Assembly (NCBI GenBank): GCA_050084515.1 | Contig: CM114271.1 | Span: forward strand, 23,560,001-23,624,000 | Direction of reading: 5' to 3' | Length of the DNA stretch: 64,000 bases | DNA from: Blasia pusilla | Taxonomy: Eukaryota | In this document: positions 49,059 through 59,086 of the stretch, piece by piece | How the letters are laid out: every line of letters begins with the position of its first letter | How positions within the stretch are numbered: position 1 is the first letter of the stretch | The notes under the pieces: model-generated | Seen by the model: the letters and a program-made list of their open reading frames with translations, nothing else | Told to the model about the DNA's origin: nothing | The model's database searches: none | Made by a program: the position numbers and the translations under genes

Positions 49059-52000
49059 GATGCGACTGGAGTTCGATGGCATGGAGAGAGTGATGAGGAG
49101 TCGGTGCCAGGATGGCACGCGTCAACCTATTTAGGCATGTTGGCTATGGAAAGCCAGAGTGTGGAGACTTCGATGGCGAGGTCTAGTGGAGAGTCCTTGG
49201 ATTCCGAGGCCATTGAGGACACGACAAGTGGCCGAGATATTCATGATGATGGAGTAGTCTTAGAGTACCTTGGATGCCATGAGTTAGCATGGGATCATGC
49301 GTGTTTGTGTGTGTGTTCGGTGACAGCGATGTATGTTGTGTAGCGATGTGTATGCGCATGACAGGCTGCTCGTACCCTTCGCTTGATGGATATAGCACCT
49401 CGGTCTACTATTACCATTGATACCTTTCGTAGGCTACATTCTCGCTTAACCGTTAATATTCCTGCTTTTTCACGTGACTTCCATCTTAACATAGTTGTAT
49501 GTCTTGACCTATCCCTCTTTGCATGGGCACTCAAATGTTCTTCTAAGATTGGGGCAGGAGGGTTGTCATGTATGAACACGTTCGTGATTTCTTTCCTCCC
49601 AAGGACTTTGCCTGTGGCTTTTTGGAGTTGCTTTAGATGACTTCTCACCTAGCTTAGGGGAGAGTGCCAACCGTAGTGGCTCAAGTATTGGGAGTGCGGC
49701 GACTTTTGGTGTTGTTGAAGGAGGGTGGAGGTATTCGTCCAATCCCCATAAGTGTGGTGCTCTTGCACTTGGTGAGTCGCACTATCGCTTTGCAACTTTG
49801 TGAGGCTTTCCAGTCACACTTGAATCAGCATTAGTTTGGAGTTGCTATGCCCACATGCTGTAAGATAATAGCCTTAAGTTTGAAGGCTTGTCTCGGTGTA
49901 CATCCTGAGTGGGTGGTCCTCTAAGTGGATGTGGAGAACGCCTTCAACTTGATGTCACAAGCAGCAGTCTTCATAGAGTTGAGGGACGCATGTGGCCCCA
50001 TTTGGAGCCTCATTCCGTTCATGCACCCTTTCTATGGGGCTTCTTCATCCCTCTATTTCCACCATGGTCGGTTTGAGGAGGAGGTCACGGTTTTGGAGTC
50101 CGCCACTGGGACTCGTCAGGGTGACCCTTTCGATGAAGCATTGTTTGCTTTGGCTCATTACCGGACGTTTCTTTCTATGGTGGAGGCTTTTCCATGTTGC
50201 ATTTTTTTGTGGTTGGTAGATGATACTCATCTTATGGGCCTTGGAGATCTAGTCGTCCCTGCACTTCAAGACCTTTCTGCACAGTTTGCACGGGTCGATC
50301 TTGGAGTGAAGGTAGGGAACTGCAGGTCTTCATTTACATGACGTGACACATGTTAGAGGGCTTCGCGTCCTAAGAGTCCCACTCCAGAGCGAAGACTTTA
50401 TTTCGAGTTTATTGGTGAAGGCTCTTATCGAGGACTTCCTTCACGTTGATGATCTCACGAGGATTGATGACCCTCCAAGTCACCTACACCATTATCTCTT
50501 CTTGTTTTGCTCGTTGACCTTGCTATCCCCTTGAATTGTTTGGATCTGGATGTGAGTGTTATCGGAGTCTGGATCCACTTGGTGTACATTTAGCACGTTG
50601 TCAAGTCAGGGATGAGAGGATTTCCACTCGCGATGTTGTTCGAGATATCATGTTGAATATTGCTCGCGAGAGTGGCTTCGACGTGCAGAGAGAGAGGCGC
50701 TACTCCATGCGTGATTCCTTTATTCGTGCTCATATTTATATGACACAAGAGACTGGGGTGGTGGCGGCGGACGTTATAATGACAGATCCTATGCCGTCTT
50801 CTATCAAGAAGTGGGTTTCCATTTGCTATTCTGATTTTCTATTATAAACAATGGATTTCATATCTTTGCTGTATAGCCAAGCCTATGGGCTCATGTGATT
50901 CTACGTTATAACCAATAGGCTTATGTACGACTCAGCTATAGGCACACAGATTTTTAGATGTCCTCATGCCGTAACTTATAGGTTAATACTTTATTTTTCT
51001 GCAAACTCCATGTGGAAAAAAGAAACCGATTGTGAACCATAGTTCTGCACACTCGTAAGGAAAAATTGTTTTCTCAAATCCCGGACGGATTTTTCATCAT
51101 GCAGTTTTAGTCCCAAGAGACGGAGTGGATGCCAGACATACTGAGAAATGCGACCCGCGGAATGAAACTAGCCGAAGGGGGATTACCTAAAACTTAGCAT
51201 GTGGGAAGTGTACGATTGTCCATCCTCAATTATTAATCACATTTTCCACGTGATTTATTTTATCGGACAAGGGAAGGTTGTAATTCTTGGTCGTAGATGG
51301 GCGAATAATCTAACTTTTGAGTGCACATGGTCATTTACGTTGTCTGCTGGGGAGACTTGTGGATACTACAGTCCGAAACGGAATTCAAGGAAATTGATCC
51401 CTCCTTCGGTGAGGGACAAGTGATCTAATTCGAGATTGTACACTAGTTCGGGATTGTACCATCCGCTGATACAGTTTTACAGCGAAAGATTTCACTACTT
51501 CAGGTGAAATCTTACGCTGAAGTCCTTCAACAATTTGCCGGGTCCACGGAAAATACACTGCCGTCAACTCTAAAATACGCTTAAACCCACGATCGTATTC
51601 GCAAGAGACCCATTCATATCAAGTCCTTTGATGGTCCACGACAAAAATTTCCTCGTATCAAATCTGGAAGATCTGGACAACTTTCATTTCTACCAAAATT
51701 TCGAGGTCCCAAGAACAGAGTTGAAAGACAGGAGACGATTCTGTTACAAACTCACGGGATGTCATTCAATTGTAAGCCCCATAGAGGGAACATCCATAGA
51801 GATGGGTGATTTGAAGGAGACTCATATTTGTGTGTCGAACTAGTTACAAAATGGATTGCCTTGATTACAAACATTGCCGGGGAGTCTGTCCGAATTCCTT
51901 GAACCGTGAACAAACGAAAGGCTACAAAAATTGATAGCAGCCAAAAGAAGCTCGGATGAAGAATGAGCTATTGAGAATCTTAGAGGGAAACCACCTAAGA

Positions 52001-52202: not shown

Positions 52203-55200
52203 TCAACAGTAAAACATGACCTTCTTTACATTCTCCTTCAGAGGAGGAAGAGGACGCACTGCACTCCCACCAGGTGCCCTTGTACTACGAGCACCAGAGC
52301 TCCCAGTCGTAGTGGTTCTACCCGGCGGACCAATTCCACTAGTGAGAGAGCCACTATCAGATGCTTCCGGTTCCATATAGAACCTAGCTCTAAATGCAGC
52401 CAAATGTGCATAGTAGGCAGGAGGTACTGATTTAAAAACCAACCAAAAAAAGGTTAGAAAAGTTCCACAAATGACAGTGATACTCTCCATTAATCACTAC
52501 ATAAGAAATACTTTGTTTAGTTACAAGAAATACACTCACCTATACAAACTGAAATAAAAAACACCATATTTCAAATTGGGCATTAAGGCATACTTAGTTC
52601 AGACCCAGGACGTGAACTCACCAATAGACACGGATCGCGTACATCTTGCATATCTGCATTTCAACTGCAGTTCAGTATTTCGAAATAAGCTTGAAATGTG
52701 CAAAAACTCTAGAAAAGATTCCTAGTAGACTGTCATAATTAGTTGGGTGTATGCAACAAAGATGAAATCTGACTTACCATCAAGTCTATATTATAGTTCT
52801 ATGAAATGTAAGTATGCTCAGTCTAGAAGCTTAGGTACTCTACTCACGTATAGCACAAATTGTTGGTTAAAGACTGCAGTTCATCAGCTTTGAAATTATT
52901 TTCATCCCAAAGAACATGGTAGTGGGCAGGCCTGCTGGTTCCCTGCACCAGAGACAGAAGTTAGGACAGCTCAAGATATTCACATCCAAGGTATCATGAG
53001 TGTTAACCATGCAGGAACCTGCAACATCACAGAGTAGTTTCATAAAGTCCCACTTATGAGATAAAACTTACCTGGATTCCCGCATGACTGCACAGGTAGA
53101 AGTCAAACTCAGTTGGGTGACAAATTTTGGAGTCCACCACAGTTCCTGCATCACAGATGATAATGAGAAAACAGTGAAAGGCCACAACCACCTATTAGGT
53201 CCCAATGGATCGATGCAAAGATCTGGGAGCTTGAAACTACCTGGTAAGATATTTCCACTCTTGTCAGTCATATTCCGATCATTGTGGCTATTTGCAAAGA
53301 GCCGAGTGTGATGTCGCTTTTGGACAACTACAAATGTCACAGGGGGCTGATAGTTGGCCTCCAAAGATGCACAAGCCTGCATAATAATCGGGGCAACAAG
53401 TTTAAGACCATTGTTTAAACATTTTTGGGAGGAAACATACTCTCAGAATTTTGACAAAAGAAATTCCGAACCTTCCTGATGGCATCGAGCTCATGAAGGA
53501 GCACTTGATAAAATTGTCCCTCGCTGACTCCATCTCTGTGATAGGACAACTATGGAATCAAAAATTTGACTAGGAGTAAGCCTTCCAAGGAGCAGAAACT
53601 ATTCCAATTGAACTGAATGATGCAAGTCCGGCATGCATTCCAAATGCATTAAATATTCAGGGCAAAGAATAAAGTGAGCCAGCACTAGTGGTATGGTCTC
53701 AAACCTAAAAACCATACCTATAAAATATAATGCGTTGTGGTTTTTGGCCAGTTGCTCTTCGGAAAGACATAAGATGTTCCCTGGAATGCAACAACACTAT
53801 CACGACCCAGACTACAAGTAGATGGTTACAAACCTATAGAATATAATGCGGAGCGGCTTTTTGCCAGTTGCTCTCCGAAAGGACATAAGGAGTTCCCTGG
53901 ATTCGTACACAAGAAGCTTGGTCAAAGCTTAACAGATCTAAGTTACAATAAAGCTAGAGTTGGAATCCTAGGTGACGATGACCACAGACTAAACATGGAG
54001 AGGAGCAAGACTGCCAAAAATGTCAACATCCCCCAACCAGAATTAAGAAGAAAAGCCTCTATCATTCTATTGTACCTTTCAAACCCAAGAACGTAGGTAG
54101 GGGAGAAACACAAATAGACACTCACATAATTCCTGCAATCTGGAAAAGATCAGATAGATAGATGGGTAATCAAAAGGCTTAGCTCATTTCACAGAGGAAC
54201 GGTTCAAATCTTTCTTCACCATGGAATACAGAGAATGGGGCACAAGAAGATCGAATTTAGAAGAGTGCAAGCAGTTCTTCAATTTTCGACAAATGGGGAA
54301 AGTATTCTCAGCAGAAATAAAACATGAAGAATGTTTAGATTTAAACTTGATCATGCCACCAGACATGGGGCCGCGCTGTGGATCCACCCAGGATTTGTAC
54401 AAATCTTGTATTAGTTCCTGCCGATGTGCCTGAGCACAAACCAGCCCTGCATACTTTGTCACTTCTGGCCAATCTTGAGAAGCGACCACCTGGAGAGGAA
54501 AAGAATGTTAATTAAATCACTTCAGAACCAGCTGACAATAAAAGTTAGCATCAAAATGCAAGCAATGTTAACTGACCAATAGTTCGAGATAAGGAGCAAA
54601 TTACCGCAGCAATGGATGGGCTAGTATCTTCCCCGGGATGAGGATGTGTGACATCTGCACCAAATATGATGGTGGGGACGTCACTAACCAAGGGTATCTT
54701 TCTGGTAAGAGCATCAACCAGCACAGTATTTCTTCCTCCAACCTTCACAAGCGGGAGCACAAATACAGGTTAGGTGGGAACTACACTCGAGGTACCAAGT
54801 CAGCTAACAGAAAGTTTTGCTACAACACTTCTTAAGGAAAAGAAGTAAACCCTGTACTTTTGTATTCATGAGGAAAACTAGTACACTAAATTTTCTAGTC
54901 AGAATAGACACTCACTTTGACATTGATCTTTAGGGCAACATTGGCCAGGTATTGCTTGCTCATTTTGTACACATGCTTCGTCAAGCAACATTGTGATACA
55001 ACTCCCAAGTCGGTTTCGCATATTCGCTTTAAATCACCTAGTGCATTACAACCACAAACATATCATAAGCCGTGCTGTGCTGATGGTAATATCATTTCGA
55101 AGGAGAAAAGTAAAAGAACTGAAGGACAAGCACATTTAGTTGAAACTCTAACCATAAAGTGCTCCATTGTTATCTGGTAGTATGACAACGAGCAGCTCCA

Positions 55201-58200
55201 AATCCTTTCCTTTGGTGCGATTTTGCGCCTCACGGAATACTTGCTTCAAAGCACGATCCACTTGGTCTGAACGGGCACAATAAATTGGCATGACCGGTTC
55301 CTGGTTGAAGTGCTGTATATTCACAAGACCGTATCGCAAGTACAAGTCATGTAAGACGAAGATAGCTTAGATATTGCGACCATGGAAATTCACACACGAT
55401 AGCCCAGCACGGCTCAGATTTCTGGGCAAAAGGACGGCCAATCATTGAGTCCTGCAGTCAAACATACCATGCCAGAGGTTGAGCACATCTGGGCTAGCTC
55501 CATGCAGAATGCTTTGGCCACAGGCTCAAGCACGTTCCGTGAAAAGTTGATGCAAGCCCAATAGTTTACAATCCCGCCGTTCACCATTTTCTGCAAAAAT
55601 TGTCCATCCACTTAAGTTACAACAGTGCCTTCTTTCACTGATTCGTGCAGCAAGGTGAGCAAGCAAGATGTAAAAACCTAACAAAACTCTGGCATTTTCT
55701 AGATTTCTATTGGAGAGTTCATGTGGAAGGGCATGACCATATTCCTTGCATACCTTATTCATCATATTCCACTGGCCAACTTGAGGGAGGCAGTCTTTCT
55801 CACGACCAGTATCGTGGTATTTCAACTGAAAGGTACAGCGAAATTTTCACGAGTTACTATTTTACAACAGCCAGTGTCAAGGCACATGGTCCAATGAGAC
55901 ACAAAACTGACGTTTCACACGTAGGCGTCGGCATGTATGTACAGGAGTTGGTAGGGGACTTGACAAACCCTTGGGGCAGGCAGTATCCGCGCTTCGACTT
56001 GGGCAAGCTTGTTACTGATACGAATTCCGAACTCTTGAGCATAGGGATCTTGGGCGTATGCATTGTGGTACACAGTCTGCCAGAAGGAAATCAATTAAAA
56101 GAAAACCAAGTGAGTAGAACAAAATTACCTACATTCAAAGCTGGTGCCTCCAGTGGATCAGGTTTCAAATTGCGTGGGAACATGATAAATCAAAATCAGG
56201 TAAATTACTTTGGTAATCCATAGGTGGAAGCTTCTGTGCTACATGGAGCTACCAAGGCACAAAAGAATTCCAGACCTGCAAGATGTCAGCTTCGCGATCT
56301 CTGGGACGCTGGCAAGTGACCTTCAAAAGAGCTGTGATTTGGCGCTCATTCAATCGCTTTGAGAAACGTTGGCCCTCCACAATTTTGCAAACCTATAAAC
56401 CGACTCTCATTAAATTAGACAAAGGCTCCGATACCATCACCAAGTACAGGTTCGCAGAGATGTAGTGAGGAATAGGTAGGGGTATCTACCTCCATCGGCA
56501 AGTAGTTAGGACGATCCCGGTTCCCTACTTGCAAGCAAGGTAAGGCGGGGTTACGGATAGTATATTGATACGTTTCCCGGAAGTAATCAGTCACTGATTT
56601 CAGCGTTCCTCTTTCATCAACAGGGAATCTGCGAAGGGATTAAATCAGTAAGCTCATGAACTGAACGATCTCGTAGATTTGAGAAAGCATAGATCGATAA
56701 CGGAATTACTTTAGGCTACTAACGTCCTTCGACTTTGCTGAGTAGAGGAACATACGAGAGATCACTCGTGGGCTGAGGTGTAAGTCCTGTTATCCGATAC
56801 TTCCTGCGCATCGTGCCACGGTGTGTAACTTCTACTTTGACACCACGTAAGGCCTTCTTGATCTGCAGCAACAAGGCTCTTAGAACAGTCAAAATAAACC
56901 AACGGAAACAAACAAGAGGTCCGGATGCTGAAGATTCTCACCTTCACACGATCTTGGTCAGATAGCTGCCTGATAACGTCCTTGCCCAGAAGTTGAGCAA
57001 CAAACTCCGTAACTGGCAGTGGCTCTATAAATGCCGTTGAAGACATGTCTGAAAAATTGCACACAATTCAATAAGGAGAATCAAGGTAGACTCAGGGAAG
57101 GTAGCAATATTAAAACGATTCCCTGTAAGGGTCTTTGCACCCACCGATGTTGAGGGATAGACCCATTTGAGTTGGCCTAATACTCTGGTAAAACCCTCTC
57201 CAACTTTCCAAACCGTCCCCGAGAGACTGCTTATTTCCCAAGTCAGGGGAGTAAAAAGAGCGTCCCACGGGACAATATCTGCAATCAGTGCACATTGAAA
57301 GCTTAGTGGTGATAGACAATGCAGGAAAATTATAATACTCCATGGCCATACTTCTGCAAATATTTCAGAGCACACAAGAGCCTTAGGTGGCAGGCTCCGT
57401 TCCAGGGTAAAACGACGTTTCCCTAGGCTCCATTAAATGCTCCCTAAGCCCACAATTCACACCATAGAACCAAACGTCCCCATCGGATTCAACGGGATCG
57501 TTTACGATGACACCAACCTGGGCGACAAATCCAATGCTCATCAGGAGGGTCGAGATAACGAGTGAACTGCAGTGAAGTTGGACAAAAAGAACGTACCTGT
57601 GGGTCGGCAGCTCGCGTAAAACAATATCTAGAACCTGCAGAGCTTCCTGGGGTGCATCCGCTTGGTGTCCTTTCAAGAACTCCCCAAGATGATGTAAATC
57701 CGCACGGGCGGCAAACTTGATCACTACCTTGAACGATCTCTCCCTCCTGCTTGCAAAATTGAGGGAATAATGTGGACGTTATGAGCCATCTAGACAACAT
57801 TTCCTCCAAAATTCGAGATACTATCATCTGGTTTGGACAATAGTTCTATTGAACAGAATCACCGAAGCGAAAAAGTGAACCACGGATTTGTCAAGCGTTG
57901 TATGTCCGAGCCGAACCTGAGGCTATGTCAAAGTAGAAATCTAACCTGGGTGTGTTGCTGCCGTCATCCTCATCCAGCAGATTGATCTGGAACTCTTTGC
58001 TTTGAAAAGGAAGTGGGCCTGCAGTATATAGACTCTTACGGCCATCGTAGGCCGGAAGTCTGCGACCTAAATCCTTTTCTCGGTAAAGCTTGACTAGCTG
58101 CTCCATCACCGCTCTGTTAACACCCCGGGATGTAACTTCAGGTGTGATTGCCACCTGTAAGACGATGAAGTGAGAATCGTGACAAACTCAAAGATTTCCG

Positions 58201-59086
58201 CAAGGATAACCTGTGCAGATGGGAAGATTTGACTGTCAAAGTCACGCCTTAGTGATAAATACGTAAAACGTAACACAGGGGAGATCCATCAATCCAGCAA
58301 AACCGTTTAGAGACGCGTTATTCTTACATCATATTGATGCAGGTCCTTGTCTGGCAGCTCAGCGAAGAAGTGATTAGCCTTTACTATGCACTTCTGTCCA
58401 GTCTGTCCCTTGCCCGGACGCAGAGGAAATCTTAAGGCCCTGCTCGAAACTGGAGGCCCTTGCCTGATTGGGGAAGACGGCCCTGGTTCCTCAACATATG
58501 CGGGATCAGCAACACTTAATTTACCGAAGGATTTGGAAACTTCTCCCGCAACGGCAGGAACAGGGTGTGTGGAGGGAGCTGTCGCTGTAAATTGGGGTCC
58601 TGAAAGTGCTGGCCCCGCTACTTCCCCACGCCCAAGCTGTGGGTATTGCTCCGCGGGTGTTAGGGGTGGGTACGCGGGAGGAGCCTGTACAGGCCCGGGG
58701 AATTGCACACCGGGAGGCCCCGAATACGAGCTTTGTGAGCCCCGTCCTGACGGGGCTCCGGGGGCAGAACCTGAATGTGGAGCTGAAGGCGCACCCTGAA
58801 ATGAAGGCCCTCTCCCTTCACGGCCTCGTCCCCGACCTCCGCTCTCTCTACCTCGTCCACGGCCCCTACCTTGGCCAACTCCTTGACCGCTTGCCGTCAC
58901 TTGAGGCGCCGATGTAGAACCTCTACTCTGGCCTCCACCTTCATCCCGCACCTGTGGAGCAGGCTCCTTGAGAGGTGCGGAGGTAACTGGTGGTGGTGCG
59001 ACGGTAGGTTGCTGAGAAGATGACGCCTGTGAAGCCGCCTGTGAAGCCTCTTCGAGTTCCTTGGGCGTTTTACGCCTTCTCGGCAT
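52203..59086 (-). CDS. AGO1: Argonaute 1-clade slicer, 22 coding exons
   Basis: GT-AG exons 59086-58328, 58154-57946, 57746-57597, 57278-57145, 57048-56942, 56862-56756, 56628-56490, 56392-56276, 56076-55969, 55825-55754, 55590-55468, 55312-55153, 55037-54916, 54742-54605, 54489-54347, [53896-53834 or 53780-53718], 53535-53472, 53376-53241, 53145-53072, 52942-52848, 52653-52622, 52426-52203. Gly/RG-rich N-terminus, PAZ, MID, PIWI with GADV/QELI/YRDG/YYAH tetrad; ends VMFYC. Confidence 0.97.
53718..53896 (-). other. Tandemly duplicated 63-nt AGO1 exon pair (16a 53896-53834, 16b 53780-53718)
   Basis: Both have CCAG acceptor and GT donor in the same phase; they encode [21 protein letters not shown] and [21 protein letters not shown]. 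Confidence 0.93.

Follow-up and report, generated by a model that had tools for sequence, protein, structure and literature searches.

Two AGO1 proteins appear to be made from one gene in the liverwort Blasia pusilla through the alternative use of two copies of an exon of the PIWI domain. The gene lies on the minus strand of a 64,000-nt stretch of DNA (GenBank assembly GCA_050084515.1, contig CM114271.1, positions 23,560,001 to 23,624,000), which is referred to here as the window and in whose numbering all positions are given. The duplicated exon is number 16 of a model with 22 coding exons, in agreement with the number given to it in a first-pass annotation made from the sequence alone, and its two copies, 16a and 16b, stand in tandem between exons 15 and 17. 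When RNA reads of the same species were mapped on this region it was found that both copies are joined to exon 15 and to exon 17 at comparable levels and no joint from 16a to 16b or from exon 15 to exon 17 was listed, and this bears out the mutually exclusive splicing that had been claimed. We put at roughly 0.8 to 0.85 the probability that this is a real and conserved mutually exclusive exon pair that yields two AGO1 proteins. The history that we propose is that exon 16 was duplicated in tandem in ancient times and would have been retained as a mutually exclusive pair, each mature mRNA carrying 16a or 16b, which would give two AGO1 proteins that are three residues apart.

Two intact copies of exon 16

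The two copies are 63 nt each, are in the same phase, have intact splice sites and are 53 nt apart, exactly as was first claimed. Each is directly preceded by CAG (CCAG) and directly followed by GT, and in both the first base closes a codon and the final two open the next. The splice sites around the pair are, by reading, ordinary GT-AG sites with no U12-type donor. The copies differ at 11 nucleotides with no indels and no stop codons, and the nine codons that differ comprise six synonymous changes and three replacements (L/H, K/Q, and L/Q), the same count as in the first-pass annotation. When positions 53300-54300 were searched for repeats, the exon pair was the sole direct-repeat family (73 nt, 84% identity, period 116). 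The coordinates first given for 16a and 16b were exact while those of the flanks were corrected from the RNA joints, which place the end of exon 15 at 54347, intron 15 at 54346-53897, and the start of exon 17 at 53535.

RNA evidence for mutually exclusive use of 16a and 16b

Three raw RNA-seq runs (X8, X9, and X10, which are three samples of one study) and a contig set (X1) were mapped on positions 53000-54800 and joints were listed when they had at least 3 reads and a 1% share. That the four contig sets holding 41-52% of the sequence words come from RNA is only a guess. The reads mapped in X8, X9, and X10 were 805, 1060, and 839, respectively, 79% of them at 99% identity or more, and the first mates map to the plus strand, which is to be expected when a minus-strand gene is sequenced from a stranded library. 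In this 1.8-kb stretch seven joints reached the threshold, three of them constitutive and four alternative (Table 1), and all four alternative classes were present in each of the three runs and in the X1 contigs. The junction counts, which had been named beforehand as a check, thus gave both 15-16a-17 and 15-16b-17, and in none of the three runs was a 16a-16b joint, in which the spacer is removed alone, or a 15-17 joint seen at 3 or more reads and a 1% share. Joints of double inclusion and of double skipping are thereby each bounded at roughly less than 3% per run, and a joint with 2 reads or fewer would escape listing. The a and b counts of X8, X9, and X10 add up to 97, 105, and 100, respectively, on the 15-16 side and to 86, 115, and 81, respectively, on the 16-17 side, which is 74-125% of the counts of the adjacent constitutive junctions, and 16b made up 28-42% of the alternative joints on the 5' side and 33-46% of those on the 3' side. 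A single X1 contig of 113 nt runs through exon 17, 16b, and exon 15, and the depth of the X1 contigs was 106 on 16b versus 66-83 on 16a, contig depth being a poor measure.

Table 1. Reads across the junctions around exon 16 in three RNA-seq runs
Junction	X8	X9	X10
14-15 (constitutive)	105	131	129
15-16a	70	75	58
15-16b	27	30	42
16a-17	58	70	44
16b-17	28	45	37
17-18 (constitutive)	105	119	80
18-19 (constitutive)	117	170	127

These counts lead to the question whether the a and b messages might come from separate gene copies, alleles, or strains and not from the splicing of one gene. The RNA-seq strain does differ from the assembly at fixed single-nucleotide polymorphisms, and the comparison covered the window out of the whole genome, both of which leave room for a second source. 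However, the two exons stand in tandem in one locus and each is exactly matched by RNA, the X1 pieces having no other letters, and the a and b counts sum to the constitutive counts. In exons 15 and 17 no minor allele was found above about 4%, which argues that the reads come from one locus. In Marchantia polymorpha, for which one AGO1 gene is listed (PMC4788410, PMC9291395), both forms are deposited and they differ almost only in exon 16. We consider it most improbable that the two messages have separate sources. The X8-X10 reads all differ from the window at 53540, 54026-54027, 54107, 54132, 54341, and 54743, most of which are intronic, and these fixed differences between RNA and assembly indicate a different strain rather than RNA editing.

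The depth on intron 15 was about 15-47, which compares with about 125-185 for exon 15 and with about 0-12 for other introns, and an X1 contig of 509 nt (53867-54375, depth 19) crosses the whole of this intron. This indicates that intron 15, just upstream of the pair, is markedly retained or slowly spliced. Transcripts that retain it would meet a stop about 53 codons past exon 15 (open reading frame 54184-54507).

Both exon types are kept in other liverworts

When 16a and 16b were compared over 20 codons, the synonymous divergence (dS) was 0.99 and the nonsynonymous divergence (dN) was 0.08, a ratio of 0.08, and the intron flanks of the two copies were identical at 21/50 and 12/50 positions, which is at or near random. 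In a protein search with the open reading frame of 16b (42 aa; 15 matches among 16 candidates) one representative, AGO1 of Riccia sorocarpa (P0006), had the b peptide. Among the best 120 of 993 matches to exon 15, Riccia fluitans P0016 and Marchantia paleacea P0018 both had the a peptide, with V in place of M. The cluster of P0018 has seven members, in which the M. polymorpha genome models P0131 and P0133 have the b peptide and an M. polymorpha entry named 'argonaute protein 1' (P0134), which by its look we guess to be derived from complementary DNA, has the a peptide; the other three members are without the exon 16 region. P0134 and P0131 are identical at 961/966 residues and four of the five differences are inside exon 16, and this near-identity outside exon 16 means that the AGO1 gene of M. 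polymorpha (Mp1g18110) has been deposited in both forms. The b peptides of the window, M. polymorpha, and R. sorocarpa match at 21/21 residues, and the a peptides of the window, P0134, M. paleacea, and R. fluitans match at 20/21, with one M/V change. Since the orthologous exons group by type, the duplication is older than the divergence of these lineages, in which both copies were retained. The first-pass annotation had proposed a search for the pair in related species, and both exon types are indeed found in proteins of Marchantia and Riccia, whose genomic arrangement would presumably be that of the window. It had also considered that just one exon might ever be spliced in, with the other absent or decayed in relatives; both exons are spliced and both peptides are kept in other genera. 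Judged from these comparisons, in which conservation is read at the protein level, purifying selection acts on both copies and they are conserved across liverwort genera.

When 35 AGO1/10 proteins were aligned, H was found at the L/H site solely in the 2 liverwort b forms and L in 31/33, and at the K/Q site Q was found in 24, H in 5, and K in 3, which are all liverwort a forms. At the L/Q site there were 19 Q and 13 L. That H occurs only in b forms and K only in a forms means that each copy has its own derived residue. The models of Calypogeia show one exon 16 peptide of a mixed type, ELLMSFKKATSQKPQR.

It could be argued that one exon is functional and that the other is a decaying duplicate which is spliced as noise. 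With 16b neutral and 16a constrained, 4 or fewer replacements among 11 changes would have a p of about 0.08, and the window sequence alone makes no more than a moderate case for selection on 16b; moreover, the H of the b form is unusual for its site. As opposed to this, the minor exon makes up 28-46% of the junction reads across the three runs, 16b has the higher depth in the X1 contigs, and the reading frame and splice sites of both exons are intact. Across genera the b peptide is unchanged in all three species that have it and the a peptide is nearly constant, dN/dS is as low as 0.08 at a dS of about 1, and 'EHL' is found in the PIWI domains of other plant AGO proteins (P0144). The decay of one copy is thus largely refuted and we regard it as very unlikely.

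Among 80 metagenome loci with a relative of exon 15, one exon-16 motif was found in 76, two in none, and no motif in 4, which end too early; 56 of the 76 single-motif loci were genomic-like. Relaxed matches of 12-15 aa with 46-54% identity in 11 loci were considered as a decayed second exon 16 and were rejected as spurious, since in the 8 loci shown they lie at a distance of about 900 nt or more. Two exon-16 copies side by side were present in no protein of the collected set, and the proteins that outscored the self-match in a third protein search turned out to be fused tandem AGO models or distant partial second PIWI copies and not exon duplications. P0142-P0146 (wheat, Leersia, Phlomoides, and Citrus models) have two PIWI regions separated by hundreds of residues, as if tandem AGO genes had been fused or a second copy were present in part, and in the Phlomoides model both modules read 'EHL' at the L/H site. 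An older M. polymorpha model, P0132 (OAE29918.1, 1083 aa), is missing the whole GGMI..IIFYR stretch, and this gap suggests annotation trouble around exons 15-16.

How one exon may exclude the other

The geometry of spacer and candidate branch point at this locus is that of the steric mutual exclusion known from animal genes, and a probable explanation is that exclusion is steric here as well, by way of the 53-nt spacer. The 16b acceptor would have to use a branch site within the spacer, at only about 33 nt from the donor of 16a; a spacer of this length would be too small for excision as an intron, and when the sites of one exon are used the other exon would be discarded within an intron. The branch site consensus in plants is CURAY, and the only CURAY-like candidate for the 16b acceptor, picked by eye, is a UGAU at 53802-53799, which is 33 nt after the 16a donor and 19 nt before the 16b acceptor. 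The smallest other modelled intron of the gene is 79 nt versus the 53 nt of the spacer. As 63 nt is 3 x 21, double inclusion (+63) and double skipping (-63) are both in frame, and therefore nonsense-mediated decay (NMD) is not the enforcer and exclusion is made at splicing.

The pair could also be exclusive because of competing RNA structures or trans-acting regulators and not because of the length of the spacer. Seven inverted repeats, all of them short, were found around the pair. Positions 53734-53748 in 16b are complementary to intron 15 at 54013-54027 (I1, 15 nt, 80%) and positions 53852-53861 in 16a to intron 15 at 54051-54060 (I6, 10 nt, 90%), so that homologous places of the two exons pair with neighbouring sites of the intron, and these two short complementarities would speak for competing structures, as would a hairpin of 11 bp with a 7-nt loop at 53690-53718, which starts from the last base of 16b and buries its GUAUGG donor. 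The balance of a and b might be set in part by this predicted hairpin. Intron 15 shows unusual retention, a feature that is often met around regulated exons. However, the region 53690-53930 folds no better than its shuffles (z = -0.47, 60/200 shuffles fold as well), and the duplex energies of 16a and 16b with introns 15 and 16 were equalled by 21, 66, 84, and 43 of 300 shuffles, the 21 and 84 being those for intron 15, which is unexceptional; RNAduplex gave long bulged pairings, which makes this a weak test. The splice sites, moreover, are of the ordinary GT-AG type, and a spacer as short as 53 nt suffices by itself in known cases. Competing structures were dropped as evidence, since the complementarities and duplexes are within the range of the shuffles, and are kept as a lead. 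We consider it unlikely that something other than the spacer enforces the exclusion, and the steric explanation is the one that we prefer.

Where the two AGO1 proteins differ

When the protein was aligned to solved AGO2 and AGO10 chains, exon 16 was found to correspond to E648-R668 of human AGO2, and the Asp that opens exon 17 to D669, the second catalytic Asp; the position of this Asp is occupied by Ala in the AGO10 chain 7sva. The claim that the exon ends (IIFYR) right before the catalytic Asp of RDG is therefore correct. The same Asp is D848 of AtAGO1 when it is numbered through the equivalence of K660 and K839 given in a preprint (10.1101/2025.10.18.683247). Exon 16 carries the equivalents of AtAGO1 F832, R834, and K839 (the F, the second R of FRR, and the K of xKP), all of which are kept in both copies, and the variable sites are AtAGO1 828 (L/H), 838 (K/Q, a change of charge beside the pocket lysine), and 841 (L/Q). 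According to the preprint, F653 and K660 of human AGO2, which are F832 (pocket 2) and K839 (pocket 1) of AtAGO1, belong to tryptophan-binding pockets, the pocket residues being K660/L694, F653, and R688 in human AGO2 and K839/L873, F832, and R867 in AtAGO1. It is also reported there that the positive patch formed by R834/R1045 of AtAGO1 is needed for the SGS3-dependent amplification of small interfering RNA (siRNA) and not for slicing guided by microRNA (miRNA). The end of exon 15 encodes a 13-residue insertion, which is a gap in the alignment of human AGO2 and is the beta-finger of AtAGO1 in the same preprint.

It is proposed that exon 16 encodes a helix, a loop, and a beta-strand that leads to the catalytic Asp. 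In an AlphaFold2 model of the a-type protein of M. polymorpha, made with a 35-row alignment, a helix (736-748), a loop, and a strand (754-760) are predicted at low confidence, the L/H site belonging to the helix and the K/Q and L/Q sites to the loop. The two isoforms had been said to differ next to the slicer site, and this holds in the primary sequence, whereas the likely effect would be on the binding of partners rather than on catalysis. Because the variable residues flank residues of the glycine-tryptophan (GW) pocket and the charged patch, a difference in cofactor binding would be more likely than a difference in slicing. We suggest tentatively that what sets the isoforms apart may be the surface on which cofactors with tryptophan (GW/WG) are bound, and a functional specialisation through the rim of the GW pocket is perhaps a shade more doubtful. 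A speculative extension is that in liverworts of the Marchantia-Riccia group, which reportedly have a single AGO1 and lack AGO10, the ancient exon pair would give two AGO1 effectors with different pocket-1 rims and different cofactors (for example SGS3-type factors of siRNA amplification versus others), and that the a:b ratio would be a regulated switch. The differences in the rim would, on the same speculative footing, be K/Q beside the pocket lysine, L/Q two residues on, and L/H on the helix that bears the pocket-2 Phe. If this is true then splicing in liverworts divides a labour that seed plants split among AGO paralogues.

Several points weigh against the reading of a conserved and exclusive pair with two distinct products. 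Exclusivity is bounded within the detection limit and is not absolute, the three samples, all from one study, do not represent every tissue, and the bound presumes that skips of 53 nt get reported like those of 95 nt. The spacer has a depth of about 20, as estimated from 61-nt coverage bins, and this fits transcripts that also retain intron 15, though a retained 16a-spacer-16b form may contribute to it. The a:b ratio differs weakly between the runs (chi-square p = 0.056 for the 5' junctions and 0.22 for the 3' junctions, neither of them significant), and regulation of the ratio is thus conjectural. The exon pair and its spacing in Marchantia and Riccia are read from deposited proteins alone, and K at the K/Q site is also found in one protein that is not liverwort-like (P0183). 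The spacer is judged to be short by the standard of this gene's own introns and not by a liverwort minimum. The AlphaFold2 model is poor, with a mean predicted local distance difference test score (pLDDT) of 48 and a predicted template modelling score (pTM) of 0.28. Finally, plant AGO1/10 proteins are naturally variable at the K/Q and L/Q sites, and the effect of these replacements could therefore be mild or small.

The AGO1 locus

By its sequence the 22-exon locus on the minus strand is liverwort AGO1. The gene model (Table 2) was spliced under the guidance of the M. polymorpha AGO1 protein P0131 and has GT..AG at every intron; the RNA joints cover exons 14-19 and the rest is protein-guided. 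Away from the exon pair there are 19 modelled introns of 79-318 nt. The identity of the window protein is 87.5% with M. paleacea, 86.3% with M. polymorpha, 84.2% with Calypogeia fissa, 83.0% with R. sorocarpa, and 82.3% with R. fluitans. In a tree of 14 hand-picked rows from about 140 proteins it falls inside the liverwort AGO1 clade with a support of 100/99, and the same tree leaves its branching relative to Marchantia, Riccia, and Calypogeia unsettled. In the orthologue P0131 the six Pfam domains are all present in the order ArgoN - L1 - PAZ - L2 - MID - PIWI, with Piwi at 734-1053, and the window gene is colinear with it across the 22 exons at 86% identity. Exon 18 of the window by itself scores 37.4 bits against Pfam Piwi (cut-off 28.9) and exon 16b aligns weakly to profile positions 135-154. 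The GADVTHP Asp, the RDG Asp (DGVSEGQ), and the C-terminal His motif, which we take to be the Argonaute catalytic set, are all present in the translations of the open reading frames of the window, and the two Asp residues align with human AGO2 D597 and D669, respectively.

Table 2. Features of AGO1 around the duplicated exon, in window positions
Feature	Positions	Strand	Remarks
AGO1 coding region	52203..59086	-	22 coding exons, 1091 codons (16b form), open frame
Exon 14	starts 54749	-	RNA reads
Exon 15	54347..54489	-	143 nt; ends GGMI-AA; joints 54487>54603, 53895/53779>54346
Intron 15	53897..54346	-	450 nt; partly retained
Exon 16a	53834..53896	-	63 nt; sequence and junction reads
Spacer intron	53781..53833	-	53 nt, GT..AG
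Exon 16b	53718..53780	-	63 nt; sequence and junction reads
Intron 16b-17	53536..53717	-	182 nt; joint 53535>53718
Intron removed in the a form	53536..53833	-	298 nt; joint 53535>53834
Exon 17	53472..53535	-	64 nt; opens A|GAT GGA, giving R-D-G; RNA joints

At the boundary of exons 13 and 14 the protein-guided model is 7 nt off (54742-54749, 54916-54923), and the start of exon 14 given by the RNA reads, which have loose ends there, is preferred. An Rfam scan of the AGO1 gene at E up to 0.1 gave 0 matches. Upstream of the gene in plus-strand order, at 49925-50341 (+), there is an open reading frame of 138 aa that by eye is reverse-transcriptase-like and for which Pfam gave nothing at E up to 0.001.

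Comparison with known systems

AGO1 is the central effector of silencing by microRNA and siRNA in plants and is usually seen as one protein per gene, its diversity being ascribed to paralogues. Here, a conserved and RNA-supported mutually exclusive exon in PIWI swaps a segment with the GW-pocket and charged-patch residues that were recently tied to SGS3-dependent siRNA amplification in Arabidopsis, and the exon pair would thus be a natural experiment on the role of the GW-pocket surface. Marchantia is a genetically tractable model, and as the same exon types are found in M. polymorpha proteins, isoform-specific genetic and biochemical work is directly feasible. Both protein forms are already public, and the liverwort gene models each show one exon, the choice varying between species; this is a caution for annotators, since the current models each hold one of the two exons.

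The classic case of mutual exclusion by an intron that is too short is that of exons 2 and 3 of alpha-tropomyosin. In OGDH the branch points of exons 4a/4b are reported to be near the 5' splice site (PMC7969005). As in such systems, the alternative exons of AGO1 are adjacent, share their flanking exons, and one and only one of them is found in the mRNA. Unlike those systems this is a plant case, and the steric mechanism is inferred from the 53-nt spacer and the missing joint rather than from mutagenesis. Mutually exclusive exons had been said to be rare in plants, and this agrees with what is reported for R. fluitans, where they make up 169 of 19,045 alternative-splicing events (PMC13642808). 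The AGO1 pair adds a well-supported example of probably steric type in a land plant. It also resembles the pairs that arise by tandem duplication (PMC6071210) in that the exons are homologous, equal in length and phase, and diverged mainly at synonymous sites, but it differs from them in that a competing RNA structure is not detectable here and that 63 nt is a multiple of three, which gives the reading frame and NMD no policing role.

In the AGO1 papers on M. polymorpha (PMC4788410, PMC9291395) and in PMC13642808, as far as these were available, and in the other literature found, there is no description of AGO1 isoforms or of mutually exclusive exons of AGO1 in liverworts; the list of such events in R. 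fluitans could include AGO1. As in the GW/Trp pockets of other AGO proteins, the equivalents of F832, R834, and K839 and the beta-finger are present in the liverwort isoforms, whereas what varies is not these pocket residues themselves but their neighbours (828, 838, and 841), with binding a prediction from sequence. The K/Q and L/Q positions are also variable among close AGO proteins of angiosperms, the paralogues AGO1, AGO5, and AGO10, but in the liverwort a single gene produces the variation through splicing; AGO10 is reportedly absent from M. polymorpha (PMC9291395). The Argonaute locus of CSR-1a/b in Caenorhabditis elegans (PMC8421154) is comparable in that one locus gives two functional proteins there and two protein forms here. 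CSR-1, however, differs by an N-terminal extension while the liverwort AGO1 differs by a swapped internal exon of PIWI. Thus, the kind of system, a tandem-duplicated and probably steric pair of mutually exclusive exons, is well known, and this instance of it, in the GW-pocket segment of the core silencing effector of plants, appears to be new.

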